DNA of 64,000 bases from Thermoplasmatota archaeon (GTDB lineage Archaea > Thermoplasmatota > Thermoplasmata > RBG-16-68-12 > JAGMCJ01): NCBI GenBank assembly GCA_022848865.1, contig JAJISE010000005.1, forward strand, positions 2,930 to 66,929. Direction: 5' to 3'. The position numbers and the translations under genes are program-made. Below the pieces are notes generated by a model. That model saw only the letters and a program-made list of their open reading frames with translations, was not told the origin of the DNA and made no database searches. Positions 4,915-64,000 of the stretch are shown here, piece after piece. Every line of letters begins with the position of its first letter. Position 1 is the stretch's first letter.

Positions 4915-6151
4915 GGGGCGCGCATATGTCCGCGGAAGCCTGCAGGACTGCTGCATCGGCGTGGAGAATGGGAGAATAGCGGAGATCAAGCGGACCCTGA
5001 AGGGCGACGAGAAGCTGCGCTTCGGCGGCATCATTCTTCCGGCCGGCATCGATCTCCACGTGCACTTCCGGGAACCTGGACTAACACGCAAGGAGGATTT
5101 CCTGTCGGGGACCACGGCCGCCGCCTGCGGCGGGATAACTTGTGCGTTCGACATGCCCAACACGCTCCCTCCAGCGACCACTCCCGAGAGGATGGAGGAA
5201 AAGGTCGCGGCGGTCGAAAGGAGGGCGTTCGTGGACTTCGGGCTGTACGCGGGACTGACGGAGGAGAGCGACATCGATGGCCTCGCCGAGACCGCAACGG
5301 CGTTCAAGATATACCTGACCGTATCGGAAGGCGATTTGGCGGTTGGCGATTTCAGCAAACTGCTCGGGCTGAAGGAGGAGCTTTCCGCGGCGGGGAAGTT
5401 CATCTCGGTCCATTGCGAGGACCCGGGACACATCAGGGACGGAGAGGCCAAGAGGCTCGAGGACCACCTGGCATCGAGACCAGACAGCGCTGAGGTCGGC
5501 GGGATAGAGATGGCGGAGCGGCTCAAGGGATTGAGAGTCCACGTGGCCCACCTCTCATCCGAGAGGGGATTGACGTCCCTTGCTGGCACGGGCTTCACGA
5601 GCGAAGTCACACCCCATCACCTGTTCCTCAATGTGAACTGCGACCTGGGCGCCTTTGCGAAGGTGAATCCCCCGCTCAGGCACAAGCATGACCAGAACGC
5701 GCTGTGGCAGGCCTTCACCGATGGAGGGATAGACGTCGTGTCATCCGACCACGCGCCCCACACCGTGGATGAGAAGGAGGCGGGCTTCGATTCCGCGCCC
5801 GCCGGAATGCCAGGGGTGGAGACCACGATCCCTCTTCTGTTGGAGAGGGTCAGGCTGGGGAGCCTGCCTCTTGAGAGGTTCGTCAACGTCGTATGCGAGA
5901 GGCCCGCCGAGATGCTCTCCCTGAAGAAGGGGAGGATCGAGGTGGGATACGATGCCGACATGATAGCCGTCGACCTCAAGCGCCCGCGAAGGATCAGGGC
6001 GGACGACCTGCACTCCAAGTGTGGCTGGACGCCCTTCGAGGGCATGAGCGGCGTCTTCCCGCAGGCGACCATCTTCCGGGGCGAGCAGATCGTGCGAGAC
6101 GGGGCTGTGATAGGCAAGCCGTCCGGAAGATACGTGGGAGCAAAGCATTAA
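4895..6151 (+). CDS. pyrC: Dihydroorotase-like cyclic amidohydrolase
   Basis: DLHVHFREPG metal-binding HxH motif. Amidohydrolase length and motifs. 20-nt overlap with the AMMECR1 gene. Confidence 0.7.
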   Translation: MERMIIEGRAYVRGSLQDCCIGVENGRIAEIKRTLKGDEKLRFGGIILPAGIDLHVHFREPGLTRKEDFLSGTTAAACGGITCAFDMPNTLPPATTPERMEEKVAAVERRAFVDFGLYAGLTEESDIDGLAETATAFKIYLTVSEGDLAVGDFSKLLGLKEELSAAGKFISVHCEDPGHIRDGEAKRLEDHLASRPDSAEVGGIEMAERLKGLRVHVAHLSSERGLTSLAGTGFTSEVTPHHLFLNVNCDLGAFAKVNPPLRHKHDQNALWQAFTDGGIDVVSSDHAPHTVDEKEAGFDSAPAGMPGVETTIPLLLERVRLGSLPLERFVNVVCERPAEMLSLKKGRIEVGYDADMIAVDLKRPRRIRADDLHSKCGWTPFEGMSGVFPQATIFRGEQIVRDGAVIGKPSGRYVGAKH

Positions 6152-6181: not shown

Positions 6182-6799
6182 ATGTCCTCGTTCGTAGCAG
6201 AGATTGTGGGTTTCGTGAGGGACCTCGTTCTTGTTCTGGGTTACCCGGGAATCTTCTTGGCGATGTTCGTGGAGGGGATAATCACGCCCATTCCCAGCGA
6301 GGCGATCCTTCCATTGGCAGGCTCCTTGGCCTATGAGGGCAGGTTCGAGGTCTGGGCGGTCATAGTCGTTGCGACTGTCGGTGCAACGTTGGGCTCCACG
6401 GTCGCGTACTTCATCGGAGACTACTTCGGCCGGGGCTTCGTGCACAGGTTCGGGAAGTACTTCAGGCTGACCGAAGAGCACCTCGAGCGGACCGAGCGGT
6501 GGTTCGAGAAGTACGGCAGGGCCTCCATCTTCATCGGGCACTGCCTACCGGGGACGAGGTCGTTCATCTCCTTCCCCGCCGGAATCGCGAAGATGGACCT
6601 GCGCAACTTCGTGATCTCGACGTTCTTTGGAGCCCTTGTATGGAACACCGTGCTGACGCTCACGGGCTACTTCCTCAGCAGCCAGCTGGACACCCTGGAA
6701 GGGTTCTTCGAGTATCTGGACATCATCGCGCTGATTGCAGTTCTGTCGGTCATAATCGTCTACTTCATCTGGACAAGGAAGCGCCCCGCTCAGGTGTAG
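6182..6799 (+). CDS. DedA/VTT-family membrane protein
   Basis: GYPGIFLAMFVEGIITPIPSE signature. Multiple TM helices. Confidence 0.8.
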   Translation: MSSFVAEIVGFVRDLVLVLGYPGIFLAMFVEGIITPIPSEAILPLAGSLAYEGRFEVWAVIVVATVGATLGSTVAYFIGDYFGRGFVHRFGKYFRLTEEHLERTERWFEKYGRASIFIGHCLPGTRSFISFPAGIAKMDLRNFVISTFFGALVWNTVLTLTGYFLSSQLDTLEGFFEYLDIIALIAVLSVIIVYFIWTRKRPAQV

Positions 6800-9454: not shown

Positions 9455-9476
9455 CCTACGAGAACTTTGAACGCTT

Positions 9477-9784
9477 GCTAGGCTTGACCGGAGGGCTCGG
9501 CGTCCTCTTGTACACCGAAACCGTCGTTAGCGGGGGTGACAGTCGAGGGCGGCGTCACCAGCTTGATGTTGACCCTCTGGCCAACTATGAGGTCCTGTCC
9601 TGTGGGGCAGGAGGCGGTGAGAAGTCGATCGGAGGATCGAAACTATCACCCTGATCGTGGATATCGGGTCAGGCACGGAAGTGAGCAGCCTTACCACGAA
9701 CTACCGGCGCTCGCGGGGTCGCGGGACCGAGGCGGCCTGAGGACAACCGGCATCGAGTCTGAGCGTCCACCTCGGCGGCCTAGC
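9477..9784 (+). ncRNA. ffs: Signal recognition particle RNA (7S / SRP RNA), about 300 nt
   Basis: Conserved domain-IV / helix-8 motif GGUCAGG-CACGGAAG-UGAGCAGCC at about 9663-9688. The 5' end (GCUAGGCU) and 3' end (GGCCUAGC) pair as a terminal helix. There is no credible ORF here and a TATA box lies upstream. Confidence 0.6.
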
Positions 9785-10439
9785 TCAGATCCGGCAGCTT
9801 CATCTGTCTTGTATCCACCCTGAGATGGTTTATATCGAACTTCTCTAGAACAAGGTCTCTGAGGACAAGTATGGCGGGCTCCTCGAAGGCCCCGCTGGAT
9901 GTGTACGCGGGGTCGTTTCCAGGTATCTCTATCCCGCTCCTCAGAAGGAGCTTCCTGGCCTCGGACCTCTCCTCCCCCTTGACGCTCATCGCGGTGACCT
10001 CGTCAAAGCCGCACTCCCTCAGCTCCTGGAGGAAGACCGGTCTCCGGAAGAGCTCCTCCAACACAGACACTGCCAGAGCTGGCTTCTCCTTGTCGGAGAT
10101 CTCTGCCAACTTGCACTTATCCCCAACCGTCTCATAGATGTTCCTCTCTCGGTTCGCGGACGTCGCGTAGACCTTCGAAGGCGGTATCTGCTTCTCCCTG
10201 ACGACGCCCATGTCCGCCATCGCCCGCAGATAGCCTGTAAGAAAGAGACGATGAATCGCATGCCCGTCCTTGTTGAGCCGCCTCGCCAGACCGCTTATCG
10301 ATCTCTCCTCCTCCTTGACATACGAGATGATCAGATTCTTCAAAGTTCTCTCGGGGACAAACAACTGCTCACCGACCGGGTAACATACTTGGTAACAAAT
10401 AAGTCTTTTCATCCCCACAATGCCCTCAGACCTGGTCAC
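9780..10439 (-). CDS. Hypothetical protein, possibly a winged-helix regulator. It has a GTG start with a TATA box about 26 nt upstream, so it is likely leaderless.
   Basis: 219-aa ORF. TTTATA at about 10461-10466 on the minus strand. The alternative start is Met10 (MKRLICY). Confidence 0.5.
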   Translation of the reverse strand: MTRSEGIVGMKRLICYQVCYPVGEQLFVPERTLKNLIISYVKEEERSISGLARRLNKDGHAIHRLFLTGYLRAMADMGVVREKQIPPSKVYATSANRERNIYETVGDKCKLAEISDKEKPALAVSVLEELFRRPVFLQELRECGFDEVTAMSVKGEERSEARKLLLRSGIEIPGNDPAYTSSGAFEEPAILVLRDLVLEKFDINHLRVDTRQMKLPDLS

Positions 10440-52599: not shown

Positions 52600-52673
52600 G
52601 CCCGAGTGGGGTAGCTTGGACATCCTAGAAGCCTGCGGAGCTTCGGACCCGGATTCAAATTCCGGCTCGGGCA
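52600..52673 (+). tRNA. tRNA-Arg (anticodon GCG)
   Basis: Acceptor stem GCCCGAG/CTCGGGC (7 bp). U8. D-arm. Anticodon stem GAAGC/GCTTC with loop CUGCGGA. T-arm CCGGA-TTCAAAT-TCCGG. Discriminator A. No encoded CCA. TTAAAGG about 25 nt upstream. Confidence 0.8.
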
Positions 52674-52720
52674 CTACATCTTTGCAGGGCTAACAAGAAT
52701 TCATCTATCTGAGTGCATTA

Positions 52721-60694: not shown

Positions 60695-61678
60695 GTGAAT
60701 ATCGCAGCATTGATGGCTGTTGTGGGCCTGTCATTGACCGCCTTCGGTGGGATACCTCATCCGCCCGTCTGGTCGGACGGGGTGACGACCATCTGGCAGA
60801 TCGGTGACGTCGAGGAGATAGATCCCGCCACTGGACATTACACCAGCTATGCGGACGAGTTCAACTGGCAGGGCTTTGGAAACCCGTTCCCGCCGTTCAC
60901 GGACCCCTTCGTCGTCGGAACGACGCCGGACGGTGAGTTCGCTTGGGGTCCCGATGCCAACGACGGATACGCGACAGACCTCACGATCCGGTGGTACGGC
61001 GAGATGTCCCTCGGCGGCCAGCTTACCATATCGTGGTCGGCCGGCAAGAGCGGCTACGAGACGAAGACTGTCACGTTCGTCGATACCGGCGACACGGCGA
61101 CGTTCACGGAACCAGGCGGATACGACTACCAGAAGGGTTGGGAGAACTACCCGCTCGTGGAGGACTCCATGACCCTGAGCCCGGTGGGGCTGGGCTGGCA
61201 CGAGCTCCGCCTTCTGCACACGACCGGCGACGGGACGTTCCACGACTGGATCAGGCTGGAATCGGTCGAGGTACCGGACGAGGTCGAGATAGACATCAAG
61301 CCCGGGAGCGACCCGAACTGCTTCAACAACAACGGACACGGAGTGATACCAGTGGCGATACTGGGCAGCGGGACGATGGATGTCACGAACATCGACCCTG
61401 CGACCGTGGAGCTGGAGGGGCTCGCAGTCAAGAGGGTGGGCAGGTGGAACAAGCTGCTCGCGCACATCGAAGACGCGGATCAGGATGGCTTCGACGACAT
61501 GGTGGTTCAGATACAGGACGAGGCCGGTGCCTTCCCGATCGGCCACAGCACCGCGACCCTCACATGGGAGTTCTATGACGGGACGCAGTTCTCGGCGGAG
61601 GATGACATCTGCGTCGTTCCTGCGGTGCATGGCGGAAAGGGGCACGGAGGAATGGGCGCACCCCTGATGTGCGGCTAG
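60695..61678 (+). CDS. Secreted hypothetical protein. The C-terminal region carries an IDIKPGSDPN...GVIPVAILGS motif.
   Basis: Signal peptide MNIAALMAVVGLSLTAFGG. GGAGGGG lies 7 nt before the GTG. Confidence 0.6.
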   Translation: MNIAALMAVVGLSLTAFGGIPHPPVWSDGVTTIWQIGDVEEIDPATGHYTSYADEFNWQGFGNPFPPFTDPFVVGTTPDGEFAWGPDANDGYATDLTIRWYGEMSLGGQLTISWSAGKSGYETKTVTFVDTGDTATFTEPGGYDYQKGWENYPLVEDSMTLSPVGLGWHELRLLHTTGDGTFHDWIRLESVEVPDEVEIDIKPGSDPNCFNNNGHGVIPVAILGSGTMDVTNIDPATVELEGLAVKRVGRWNKLLAHIEDADQDGFDDMVVQIQDEAGAFPIGHSTATLTWEFYDGTQFSAEDDICVVPAVHGGKGHGGMGAPLMCG

Positions 61679-61757: not shown

Positions 61758-61997
61758 CTACTTCCCCGTCTCCTCCAAGGTGGAGATCCTACCCTCGAGT
61801 CCTTCCATCCTCTTGCGGAGTTCTGCAATGGCCTTCTTCATGTTGTCGAACTCGTCCTTCATGTCCGCCCAGAGCGGCGAGGGCGGCTCCCCGGTCGTGG
61901 GCAGTTTCCTTCTATCGGGCGGTTGGGGGATTTCCCCCTGCGGTTTTTTCGGTATCATCCTATATGCTTCGGAGTTTCGAGTTATGAATGTTTGCAT
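61758..61997 (-). CDS. Small hypothetical protein (79 aa) with a C-terminal coiled coil
   Basis: More protein-like composition than the overlapping plus-strand ORF. No RBS. Confidence 0.35.
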   Translation of the reverse strand: MQTFITRNSEAYRMIPKKPQGEIPQPPDRRKLPTTGEPPSPLWADMKDEFDNMKKAIAELRKRMEGLEGRISTLEETGK

Positions 61998-62027
61998 TTG
62001 TCATCAAGATGTCGTTACATGCCCCAG

Positions 62028-62106
62028 GCAGAATCGGAGGAGTGGTAGAATGAGAAGAGAGGATTGCACGTGGAGGAAGCACTGCGCCTCGCACGAGTGC
62101 GGTGAC
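62028..62106 (+). repeat. Direct repeat copy 1 (about 80 nt), shared with 63019-63113
   Basis: AATCGGAGGAGTGGTAGAATGAGAAGAGAGG...GCCTCGCACGAGTGCGG. It contains the hairpin CGCAC-GA-GTGCG. Confidence 0.6.
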
Positions 62107-62171
62107 TAGAGACCTCTCTTGAGAGTTACATTCATATAGTATCGTAACGATATATTTGTAACGGTGAGGGT

Positions 62172-62465
62172 ATGAAGGTTATCACCACGAGGATTTCGGA
62201 GGACTACTTCAAGGATCTGCAAATGATAGAGAAGGAGGAGCATACCGATAGAGCCGAGGTCATAAGGAAGCTGCTGGCGAAGGGCATCAAGGAGTGGAAG
62301 GTGAAGAGGGCCTTGGAGTTGCTGAGAGCGCACAAGCTCACTCTGAGGAGGGCCGCTTCCATCGCCTCCATATCATATGTTGAGATGCTGGATTTGGCCT
62401 CGAAACATGGCATAGACATCGGGTATTCCTCAAAGGACTTGGAAAGGGATATTAGGAGTCTCTGA
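62172..62465 (+). CDS. UPF0175-family antitoxin
   Basis: KLTLRRAASIASISYVEMLDLASKHGIDIGY matches the UPF0175 HTH core. Lies immediately upstream of its PIN partner. Confidence 0.7.
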   Translation: MKVITTRISEDYFKDLQMIEKEEHTDRAEVIRKLLAKGIKEWKVKRALELLRAHKLTLRRAASIASISYVEMLDLASKHGIDIGYSSKDLERDIRSL

Positions 62466-62474
62466 GGGCAATGG

Positions 62475-62969
62475 ATGATAGTTGATTCCTCGGTCTTGAT
62501 CCACCTTTCCAGGATAGGCGAACTGAGCCTCTTGAAGGAATTCCTTGGCAAGGTGACGATCACAGAGGATGTCTACAGAGAGACTGTGGAGGAGTCGGCG
62601 GGCAGAGCCGGATCGAGCGCGATAGAGCAGGCCTGCGGGGATTGGATCGATGTGCGCGAACCGAAGGACAAGAAGGTCCTCGACTCTATCGTGGGATTGG
62701 AGGGAATAGAGCGCGCGGACGCATCGCTCATACTCATGGCCGAGGAGAAAGGCGACGCGTTGATCTCCAACGACCTTGCGCTGATCAGAGTCGCGAGGAG
62801 CAGGGGAGTCGAGTCGTGGTGGTTGACGACGCTCATCCTCAAGATGACCGCGAAGGGTAAGATGAGCAAGGAGGAGGCGAAGGCGGTCCTGATTGAACTC
62901 GTTGAAACCGGCCTTAGGTTGTCCCCCGAGGTCTATACATCCGTCCTCGGTAGAATTGATGAGATGTGA
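62475..62969 (+). CDS. PIN-domain (DUF3368-type) toxin
   Basis: MIVDSSVLIHL... N-terminal PIN acidic residue. Conserved D in NDLALI. The UPF0175/DUF3368 pairing is a known TA arrangement. Confidence 0.7.
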   Translation: MIVDSSVLIHLSRIGELSLLKEFLGKVTITEDVYRETVEESAGRAGSSAIEQACGDWIDVREPKDKKVLDSIVGLEGIERADASLILMAEEKGDALISNDLALIRVARSRGVESWWLTTLILKMTAKGKMSKEEAKAVLIELVETGLRLSPEVYTSVLGRIDEM

Positions 62970-63018
62970 GATCCGGCAAGAGATTCTCGAGAATGACTTC
63001 GGCACTGGAGTTACCCGG

Positions 63019-63113
63019 GCAATCGGATGAATGTGGTCAAGAAAGAGGACTGAGATTGAAGAGGGGAGAATGAGAAGAGAAGGCTCCGGGCCTCGCACGA
63101 GTGCGGGGAGTGG
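63019..63113 (+). repeat. Direct repeat copy 2
   Basis: AATCGGATGAATGTGG...GAATGAGAAGAGAAGG...GCCTCGCACGAGTGCGG. It has an insertion of about 20 nt relative to copy 1. Confidence 0.6.
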
Positions 63114-63221
63114 GAGGAGGGCTTGAGGTTCAGGATAGCTGTGCGGGCACGCACATCCTGCAATCCGGGACGGTTTTTATCCCAGTAATACATATCTACC
63201 CTCGCAGAACGAGGTAAAAGA

Positions 63222-63443
63222 ATGCAGGTGAAAGTAGGTTCAAAGGGACGGATAGTCATTCCGCACAAAATAAGGCGCAAGTACTCGATCCTGCCAGGAA
63301 AGGAACTTCAGATAGAGGAGGAGGAAGGCGTAATCAGGCTACTCGTCCCCGCAAAGCTGGCCGATCTGTGTGGGACTTGGGATATGGATCTGAATGAAGT
63401 GAGGAGAGCAATAGAGGATTTGAGAGAACACTGGCGGGAATGA
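63222..63443 (+). CDS. AbrB/MazE/SpoVT-family antitoxin-like DNA-binding protein
   Basis: GSKGRIVIPHKIRRKYSI swapped-hairpin motif. Confidence 0.6.
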   Translation: MQVKVGSKGRIVIPHKIRRKYSILPGKELQIEEEEGVIRLLVPAKLADLCGTWDMDLNEVRRAIEDLREHWRE

Positions 63444-63686
63444 GAGGGATTCGTTTTGAGGGTGTCCATAGGCACCACGTACACTGCCCCCCTCCTCGCG
63501 GATGAAGAGCTCAAAAGGCTGGCTATCGATGATGAAGAAAAATGGATGTACCCTCTCGAGCACAAGGGTTGTTAGCCTATTGCACAATAAGCTCATTGGT
63601 TAACAAGATGGATGATGGGTTCGTGCCGCAGGATATTCTAGCTATATGCCGATAGACTTATACTATAGGAAAGTATAGTAGATACC

Positions 63687-64000
63687 GTGATCGACGAGAA
63701 GGCCGCCAAGCTGCTGCTGGCTCTTGAGAGGGGCACACAGAGGTTTGGAGCACTCCAGGAGGACGTTCCGAACCCAAGGACCTTGAGTTCGAAGCTGAAA
63801 GCCCTGATCCGATTGGGCCTCGTGGAGAAAAAAGGAGGGCTCTACCGCCTCAATGATAGAGGTGAGAAGGCCCTCTTTCATGTCAGGGAGCTCCAAGAAA
63901 TCGTCAGCCCGCTACCGCCGATATCCGTGGAGAAGATTCCCCATCAAGCCTTCAGACCCTACATCAGGCGATTCTGCGAGAAGCTCCTTGAAAGGTATGG
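63687..64000 (+). CDS. Putative winged-helix transcription regulator, 3' partial (runs off the window). Not in the ORF track.
   Basis: GTG start after a stop codon. Translation VIDEKAAKLLLALERGTQRFGALQ...LIRLGLVEKKGGLYRLNDRGEKAL. AT-rich promoter upstream. Confidence 0.4.
   Translation, partial: MIDEKAAKLLLALERGTQRFGALQEDVPNPRTLSSKLKALIRLGLVEKKGGLYRLNDRGEKALFHVRELQEIVSPLPPISVEKIPHQAFRPYIRRFCEKLLERY

Follow-up and report, generated by a model that had tools for sequence, protein, structure and literature searches.

The window analysed here is a stretch of 64,000 nucleotides (nt) from contig JAJISE010000005.1 of a Thermoplasmatota archaeon. Near its right end it carries a junction repeat of approximately 100 nt, designated R, in two copies (R1, copy 1, and R2, copy 2) that lie on either side of a toxin-antitoxin (TA) gene pair. 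R1 extends from 62012 to 62128 and R2 from 63004 to 63135, both on the plus strand. The pair between them consists of a 97-aa UPF0175-family antitoxin gene (62172-62465, plus strand), which matches Pfam PF03683 above the cutoff (E=7.9e-9), and a gene for a 164-aa PIN-like toxin with a DUF3368 C-terminal region (62475-62969, plus strand). The matches of the PIN protein to PF20698 (E=3.8e-5) and PF11848 (E=6.8e-5) are both just under the curated cutoff, and PF11848 is recorded in 47 of the 47 homologues found at E<=1e-10. Judged from the adjacency of two small genes and from their family domains, they are predicted to form a type II TA pair. To the right of R2 lies a 73-aa AbrB/MazE-type antitoxin gene (63222-63443, plus strand; PF04014, E=6.8e-9), followed by what is left of its cognate VapC (PIN) toxin gene (63456-63575, plus strand). 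The Pfam matches support the gene calls of an earlier note on this DNA, which had also read the degraded AbrB partner as a trace of TA locus turnover. This was borne out: only the first ~30 codons of VapC are left, with 60% identity over 30 aa to an intact 135-aa VapC on the sister-species contig L018, and window 63540-63641 stands in place of L018 4227-4570.

Direct reading and pattern matching of the window found three collinear blocks in both copies of R. Block 1 is AATCGGAGGAGTG at 62032-62044 in R1 and AATCGGATGAATG at 63021-63033 in R2; its common pattern AATCGGAKGARTG starts at 62032 and 63021, and the copies differ here by a 2-nt indel (GAGTGGT versus GAATGTGGT). Block 2, GAATGAGAAGAGA, is located at 62048-62060 and 63068-63080, and block 3, the core, is the exact 17-mer GCCTCGCACGAGTGCGG at 62086-62102 and 63090-63106. 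In R2, ~20 additional nt separate blocks 1 and 2, and ~16 nt (ATTGCACGTGGAGGAAGCAC) that lie between blocks 2 and 3 in R1 and in most relatives are missing. Local alignment of the intergenic regions 61998-62171 and 62970-63221 covered 62023-62105 and 63014-63109, with 68 of the 79 aligned columns identical, plus indels. Its score of 50 compares with a mean of 18.7 (standard deviation 2.8, maximum 31) over 500 dinucleotide shuffles, which confirms the two imperfect direct repeats that the earlier note had seen bracketing the UPF0175/DUF3368 pair. An nhmmer profile of R built from 18 copies in relatives matched the window at 62012-62126 (E=6e-28) and 63016-63130 (E=5e-19, or E=1.5e-21 for copy 2 in another profile search). 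R is therefore somewhat longer than the bounds first proposed (62028-62106 and 63019-63113), which were correct as to location. Neither the block patterns nor the profile revealed further copies in the 64-kb window, apart from one chance-level match (E=2.9).

A variable array of toxin-antitoxin cassettes

Eight more variants of the island in the same species, with ~95% nucleotide identity, were reached through identical or nearly identical copies of the PIN protein; contigs of relatives carry L numbers below. The eight conspecific islands all start with the gene for a 79-aa protein, R1 and the UPF0175-PIN pair, and all end at a conserved gene for a 160/161-aa membrane protein, while the interior varies. 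The cassettes are abbreviated here as U (UPF0175/PIN), A (AbrB/VapC), H (HEPN(-)/HTH-NTase(-), HTH-NTase being a helix-turn-helix nucleotidyltransferase, or MNT, gene), Z (110-aa Zn-ribbon-AbrB(-)/DUF4258(-)) and M (HTH-NTase/HEPN(+)), where signs in parentheses give the strand and Δ a loss. The window reads U-A(ΔVapC)-M, L055 reads U-H-A(Δ)-M, L059 and L060 read U-H-Z-A, and L061 reads U-Z-H-A(Δ)-M, so that the order of H and Z is reversed between L059 and L061. L065 has U-Z(ΔDUF4258)-A-M followed by PIN137(-)/AbrB95(-) and a 77-aa open reading frame (ORF), and L057 has U-H, then PIN133(-)/VapB(-), then Z-A(Δ)-M, then a second MNT/HEPN pair and more. L018, from a sister species, has A-M followed by PIN137(-)/AbrB95(-), and a more divergent contig, L056, has A-Zn-ribbon(-)-U followed by PIN137(-)/AbrB(-). 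At least seven cassette types occur at the locus. Compared for synteny among relatives, the region is hypervariable and not conserved, and the presence of the UPF0175/PIN cassette itself varies. As a separate case of toxin decay, L055 (4083-4577) has two ORFs, of 56 and 105 aa, in place of the PIN/DUF3368 gene that the window carries intact.

R stands at the seams between unrelated TA cassettes on either strand, namely UPF0175/PIN, AbrB/VapC, HEPN/MNT and Zn-ribbon-AbrB/DUF4258. The profile search found at most three strong copies per island together with degenerate ones, all on the same strand regardless of the strand of the genes. R2 is the point where conspecific strains carry additional cassettes: directly right of its core, L055 has a 1.18-kb HEPN(-)/MNT(-) cassette, and L061 and L065 have the 110-aa/DUF4258(-) cassette. 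To the left of the core there are constant tails, La after the 79-aa gene, Lb after the PIN stop codon and Lc after the start of DUF4258(-); the tail after the MNT(-) start consists of a second repeat, S (described below), plus a truncated R. To the right of the core there are constant heads, of which Ra is the UPF0175 promoter region, Rb the AbrB promoter region, Rc the 3' end of HEPN(-) and Rd the 3' end of the 110-aa(-) gene. R1 is thus of left type La and right type Ra, and R2 joins the tail of the UPF0175/PIN cassette (Lb) to the head of the AbrB cassette (Rb). The sequence common to all R copies, about 55 nt, is GAGAAGAGAGGATTGCACGTGGAGGAAGCACTGC plus GCCTCGCACGAGTGCGG; block 1 (AATCGG…) is shared by the La and Lb tails, with fainter echoes in other copies.

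The same tail meets different heads. Lb is joined to Rb in the window, to Rc in L055 and L059 and to Rd in L061 and L065, and Lc is joined to Rb in L059, L065, L057 and L009 or to Rc in L061. Tails and heads thus combine freely at the R core. The array runs from the conserved 79-aa gene to the conserved 160-aa membrane-protein gene, neighbouring cassettes are joined in the form tail, R core, head, and the UPF0175/PIN cassette has R1 as its left and R2 as its right junction.

The conserved GTPase gene upstream of the island was used as an anchor to fetch further relatives. L018 represents a sister species whose GTPase is 92% identical to that of the window. Its gene order is GTPase, 79-aa gene (minus strand), a single R and AbrB with an intact VapC, and UPF0175/PIN is absent. 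The left part of the L018 copy of R aligns with window 62019-62099, that is with R1 and its left flank, and from the core onward L018 aligns with window 63081-63539, the right flank of R2. Independent assemblies of two further sequencing runs (L074 and L075, 99.96% identity) show the same arrangement. The window therefore has left flank, R1, UPF0175-PIN, R2 and right flank where the sister species has left flank, R and right flank, and the L018 locus is an empty site for the UPF0175/PIN cassette. L009 was considered as a second empty site and rejected, since its R is the tail of a 110-aa/DUF4258 cassette (Lc type) and is therefore uninformative in this respect.

R was restricted to this array. 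In more than ten related contigs it occurs only in this island and in one orientation, with none in ~10 kb of their flanks. A core 19-mer searched against 241 M metagenome records gave 11 matches, of which only two (L009 and L013) were homologous beyond the pattern, both of them pieces of the same island. A genome-collection scan with a two-block pattern gave no match; L018, which is in that collection, escaped the exact pattern because of a 3-nt deletion in its core. Among viral contigs two patterns gave only chance matches of pattern length, plasmids gave no match, and neither yielded an attP candidate. Other Thermoplasmata have UPF0175/PIN homologues at 59-69% identity, and these pairs stand alone, with neither R nor other flanking repeats. 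R is therefore neither a dispersed repeat nor intrinsic to the UPF0175/PIN family; it belongs to this particular array in this clade, and the possibility that it was a widespread element unrelated to TA loci fell away. With only two island copies in the 64 kb and no terminal inverted repeats, it also does not resemble a miniature inverted-repeat transposable element or a repetitive extragenic palindrome.

The copies of R are mosaic. The middle segment of R2 is of La/Lc type in L055 and L059 and is GAGAAGGCTCCGG in the window, L061 and L065. Comparison of L055 with L061 requires more than one exchange, crossovers appear to lie to the left of the core as well, and the core itself varies among copies. 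Among six conspecific strains, R1 shows 0.10-0.15 differences per site versus 0.00-0.05 in the UPF0175 and PIN genes.

The hairpin CGCAC-GA-GTGCG, which the earlier note had placed in the repeat, is indeed present in the window; it is not conserved, since relatives have GCCTCGCGTGAGTG, GCCCCGCAAGAGTG and GCCTCGCATGAGTGGGA at this place with no compensatory changes. An RNAalifold consensus of 14 R copies gave -1.95 kcal/mol with 6 pairs and 0 compensatory changes, and folds of single copies were no better than those of shuffles (z = +0.73, -0.48, +0.62 and -0.21). R had no Rfam match even at E ≤ 10. A structured RNA or C/D-box small RNA (sRNA) was therefore rejected. A small ORF in copy 1 (MRREDCTWRKHCASHECGD) was rejected as well, being out of frame in copy 2 and having starts and stops that are not conserved in relatives; its Cys and His codons mutate freely there (TGC to TAC, CAC to CGT or CAA).

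How the array may be rearranged

Taken together, these features suggest that one uncultured Thermoplasmata clade has a strain-variable TA cassette array on its chromosome, that R is the junction (spacer) repeat of this array, and that recombination between copies of R brings cassettes in, removes them and changes their order. We put the probability of this reading, taken together with homologous recombination as its agent, at about 0.6. Crossovers would occur at R, and the work would be done by ordinary homologous recombination or gene conversion and not by a dedicated recombinase. Recombination between two direct copies of R would excise a cassette with one R, and the resulting circle, or incoming DNA bearing one R, could re-enter at any other R in a Campbell-type event, so that R would serve as portable homology for the gain, loss and reshuffling of cassettes. 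Such excision and re-entry would account for the empty site, for the presence/absence variation and for the permuted orders. Diverged copies of R would also convert one another, and the high polymorphism of R is what such conversion would be expected to produce. Homologous recombination is favoured as the agent since R lacks the hallmarks of known recombinase sites, no recombinase lies nearby and the copies are mosaic.

Several points weigh against this reading. Homologous recombination leaves unexplained how four unrelated TA families first arrived between copies of R. R is short, with ~55 nt common to all copies, and the copies are only ~70-90% alike, which makes a poor substrate for homologous recombination. 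Comparison of the R2 of the window with that of L061 and L065, and the end of contig L003, place the change from tail to head within 7 nt, GCCTCGC, a precision that looks more like site-specific exchange. Some junctions have no R: in L057, R2 is absent between PIN and HEPN(-), and in L056 the Zn-ribbon gene leads into U with no R upstream of UPF0175. R was therefore not used in every rearrangement. The UPF0175/PIN event fits an insertion in the window lineage and an R1 × R2 deletion in L018 alike. Finally, all data on relatives come from metagenome-assembled genomes or contigs, which leaves room for R elsewhere in the genome.

The first of these points, the origin of R on unrelated cassettes, and the 7-nt switch speak for an alternative in which R is the site of a dedicated, non-integron cassette-capture system. 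A site-specific recombinase encoded in trans would exchange strands in or next to the core (~GCCTCGC) and so excise and insert TA cassettes, much as attC recombines with attC or attI in sedentary chromosomal integrons and in CALINs (clusters of attC sites without an integron integrase). R would then be a linear, unstructured, double-stranded site of ~55 nt belonging to an undescribed archaeal integron-like shuffling system, with its recombinase encoded elsewhere, and the array would be a private, strain-variable library of TA and defence genes. This alternative fits several observations: a cassette consists of genes on either strand plus an R of fixed orientation, cassette order is permuted, the Lb tail continues into any of three heads right behind GCCTCGC, and the independent contig L003 ends exactly there (63096). 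R is also lineage-specific and fairly homogeneous, like the attC sites of sedentary integrons, and TA cassettes are the classic cargo of such arrays. Several tests of R as a recombinase site were nevertheless negative. A regular-expression search for an attC core pair, R'' (RYYYAAC) and R' (GTTRRRY) 40-140 nt apart, gave no match on either strand of seven island variants, and there was no conserved hairpin or covariation in the 14 copies examined; an attC site was therefore rejected. The best inverted repeat of the form 11-N(4-10)-11 in R matched at 7-9 of 11 positions, no better than dinucleotide shuffles in 17 of 18 copies, so that a dif-like, lox-like or generic tyrosine-recombinase site was rejected for want of symmetry above chance. 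The variable core and the crossovers to its left also argue against exchange at a fixed position. No recombinase of the Phage_integrase type was found within 10 kb in eight island variants (L001, L055, L057-L061 and L065), nor in a scan of 20 ORFs of the window with lengths of 250-420 aa. Thermoplasmat* does not appear in the main text of a survey of archaeal integrons (PMC9668308). On balance, we consider a dedicated recombinase unlikely.

The copies of R could instead be passive scars with no role in the rearrangements: a single intergenic region would have been duplicated in tandem long ago, and different TA genes would since have replaced one another inside it. The lack of any sign of purifying selection on R would agree with this, as would the junctions without R and the nested fragments of the AbrB head at several junctions. 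It is difficult to reconcile with an empty site that is an exact one-R chimera of both flanking copies, with the same cassettes in different orders with R at their seams, and with paralogous copies of R that are still recognisable and swap segments, since this last observation needs ongoing recombination between them. We therefore hold this explanation to be improbable. As for the AbrB-head fragments themselves (GGAGGGCTCGA..TTCAGGA.AGCCGT.CGGG), they lie upstream of the 110-aa/DUF4258 cassette in L057 (12470-12520) and L059 (7590-7640) and are broken at the same nucleotide in both, which suggests nested insertions into the AbrB head that were later moved as a block.

Very unlikely, lastly, is the view that R is a cis-regulatory element (an insulator, an operator or an upstream site of activation by a shared regulator) that every TA cassette requires and therefore carries in its own copy: both window copies do lie 66-109 nt upstream of a TA operon start, and the GCAC motifs in R at 12-13-nt spacing (GCAC-N9-GCAC-N8-GCAC) could suit a multimeric DNA-binding protein, but R also abuts the 3' ends of minus-strand cassettes (HEPN(-) and 110-aa(-)), a position that calls for no promoter, accompanies four unrelated TA families, is missing upstream of the L056 UPF0175 cassette, which keeps its own promoter/operator (homology from window 62125), and from distant UPF0175/PIN pairs, and is 3-5 times more polymorphic than the neighbouring genes, with a palindrome that is not maintained. 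The earlier suggestion of duplicated promoter or autoregulation sites is not supported on these grounds; unlike a TA operator, R is not a family-specific element that sits at its operon's promoter and is retained with the operon.

If host homologous recombination acts here as we favour, a short portable repeat can make an intergenic region into a self-organising site of cassette exchange, and the rapid turnover of TA genes in uncultured Thermoplasmata would be explained. If a dedicated enzyme is involved, the locus would represent a new cassette-capture system. With its defined empty and filled alleles and its defined heads and tails, it offers a concrete and testable case.

Other features of the region

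The UPF0175/PIN cassette has a putative promoter/operator of its own at 62125-62171 (plus strand), distinct from R. It contains GTTAC-N14-GTAAC-N9-GTAAC (GTTAC at 62125-62129, GTAAC at 62144-62148 and 62158-62162) around A/T-rich, TATA-like boxes, with GGTGAGG ahead of the ATG, and is conserved in L056.

The second junction-associated repeat, S, is ATTGCACAATAAGCTCATTGGTTAACAAG at 63579-63607 (plus strand), located at the lost VapC body and upstream of a helix-turn-helix nucleotidyltransferase gene. It occurs once in the window, where none is expected by chance. Its consensus, ATTrCryAATAAGCTyATygGyTAACAAG, is partly palindromic (CTTATTA...TAATAAG / ATTACGTAAT), and it adjoins the start of helix-turn-helix nucleotidyltransferase (MNT) genes on either strand. 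S recurs in L055 (twice, 5826-5847 and 6389-6410), L056 (2031-2047), L057 (11643 and 13857), L058, L059 (7509), L061 (5852 and 6415) and L009. It may be an operator of these MNT-type antitoxins or another junction scar. The nucleotidyltransferase gene that follows S in the window (63687-64000, plus strand) is the start of the next cassette, an MNT-type antitoxin gene cut by the window end, with weak winged helix-turn-helix Pfam matches. In relatives the full MNT gene encodes 248 aa and is followed by HEPN; matches to PF01909/PF18765 together with the HEPN partner were found in L001, L018, L055, L057, L061 and L065.

Within the VapC remnant, at 63498-63551 on the plus strand (GGATGAAGA...GATGATGAAGA), there are sub-threshold matches to the C/D-box sRNAs sR41 and sR30 (18.3 and 17 bits, E ~0.2, against gathering scores of 54 and 38), which are probably due to chance. 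The only RNA genes detected in the window are the archaeal signal recognition particle RNA (9476-9785, 197.9 bits) and a tRNA-Arg (GCG) at 52600-52674; the former marks the DNA as archaeal. As the tRNA-Arg gene is the sole tRNA gene and lies at that distance, R was rejected as an att site derived from a tRNA fragment.

The left border gene (61758-61997, minus strand) encodes a coiled-coil protein of 79 aa, or 66 aa from an internal start, with no Pfam family above threshold. It adjoins R1 in the window and R in L018, L055, L057, L059, L061, L065, L074 and L076. In L019-L021 (81% identity) the 79-aa/66-aa gene is present and no island follows it. On L013, its place upstream of R1 is taken by overlapping, frameshifted transposase-like ORFs of 163 and 305 aa (151-1211), which look IS630-like by eye.

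Housekeeping genes lie upstream of the island and encode a DRG-type GTPase, an amino-acid kinase and topoisomerase VI. The GTPase gene is separated from the 79-aa gene by a 327-aa gene (60695-61678, plus strand) with a signal-peptide-like N-terminus and no Pfam family. This gene is variable: it is absent in L018/L074 and in L019-L021, two glycosyltransferase genes separate it from the 67-aa gene in L076, and its upstream neighbour in L059/L060 is a VWA/PKD protein and not the GTPase. In L016, whose GTPase is 99% identical, homology to the window ends directly after the GTPase stop codon (window 60647). The remaining 4.7 kb of that contig (5913-10649) appear to hold a long gene that runs off the contig end and may encode a surface protein like the 1633-aa one of L019; neither the 327-aa gene, the 79-aa gene nor the TA island was found there. 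The entire stretch downstream of the GTPase is thus a variable hotspot. In the window, the G+C content drops from ~0.62 to ~0.50 (0.47-0.58) from 61900 on, across the TA island to 64000, and the GC skew over 61900-64000 is strongly positive, the plus strand being purine-rich.

Short contigs of other samples also begin or end inside R. The Logan contig L003 (1007 bp, equal to window 62109-63096) ends in both R copies, its right end lying exactly after the GCCTCGC of the R2 core, and L062-L064 likewise begin or end inside copies of R. The ends of L003 are consistent with branching of the assembly graph by island variants that co-exist in those samples.

Comparison with known systems

Repeat-delimited gene-cassette arrays are known mainly as integrons, whose attC sites are folded hairpins. 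The locus described here is a TA cassette array on an archaeal chromosome that varies in content and order among near-identical strains, and its separating repeat carries the hallmarks of neither attC nor dif. Literature searches on archaeal integrons and on archaeal TA cassettes flanked by repeats turned up no account of an array of this kind.

Its nearest functional analogue is a sedentary chromosomal integron or CALIN. Like these, the R island is an array of small interchangeable cassettes with one repeat each in a single orientation; in both, the repeats of one lineage are much alike and do not occur beyond it, TA genes are carried and the cassette order varies between strains. A CALIN also needs no adjacent integrase. 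Archaeal integrons do exist, mostly as CALINs, and TA proteins are the most frequent annotated function of their cassettes (10.5%; PMC9668308). R differs in having no R''/R' core sites, no conserved folded hairpin and no IntI nearby, and the present cassettes carry their own promoters, lie on both strands and are not exchanged at one position. As it fails the defining tests of attC, R is not a member of the integron/CALIN class.

A second parallel is found in the pdif modules of Acinetobacter plasmids, often TA pairs, which are bounded by XerC/D sites. These are 28-bp sites with 11-6-11 inverted arms, in alternating orientation. There too, short sites bound small modules, frequently TA modules, that are shuffled between replicons or strains. 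Such 11-6-11 inverted arms are the architecture of Xer/dif sites (PMC2958812), whereas R is 55-115 nt long, is repeated directly and shows no Xer-type symmetry above chance.

The earlier note had also proposed that the repeats might be att-like boundaries of a small inserted cassette, and the anatomy supports this in part. As in tandem accretion at an att site, for example at the 3' end of a tRNA gene, direct repeats of the target bracket each unit, the flanking copies are chimeric in the manner of attL and attR, and a relative has a one-copy empty site with matching outer flanks (L018, L074 and L075). The case for an att site in the strict, site-specific sense is weaker: the units of ~1 kb have no integrase, the UPF0175/PIN cassette holding only its two genes, the target is not a tRNA gene, the identical core is just 17 nt in a diverged 100-nt repeat without recombinase-type symmetry, and no matching attP turned up in the viral and plasmid collections.

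Minimal mobile elements, described in Neisseria, exchange cassettes by homologous recombination between conserved flanks. The array resembles them in having alternative cassettes between conserved sequences and presence/absence variation at the strain level, and, if the reading favoured here is correct, in relying on host homologous recombination without dedicated enzymes. It differs in that the homology is a short internal repeat between every cassette and not just two flanking core genes, and re-ordering within one array is therefore possible.

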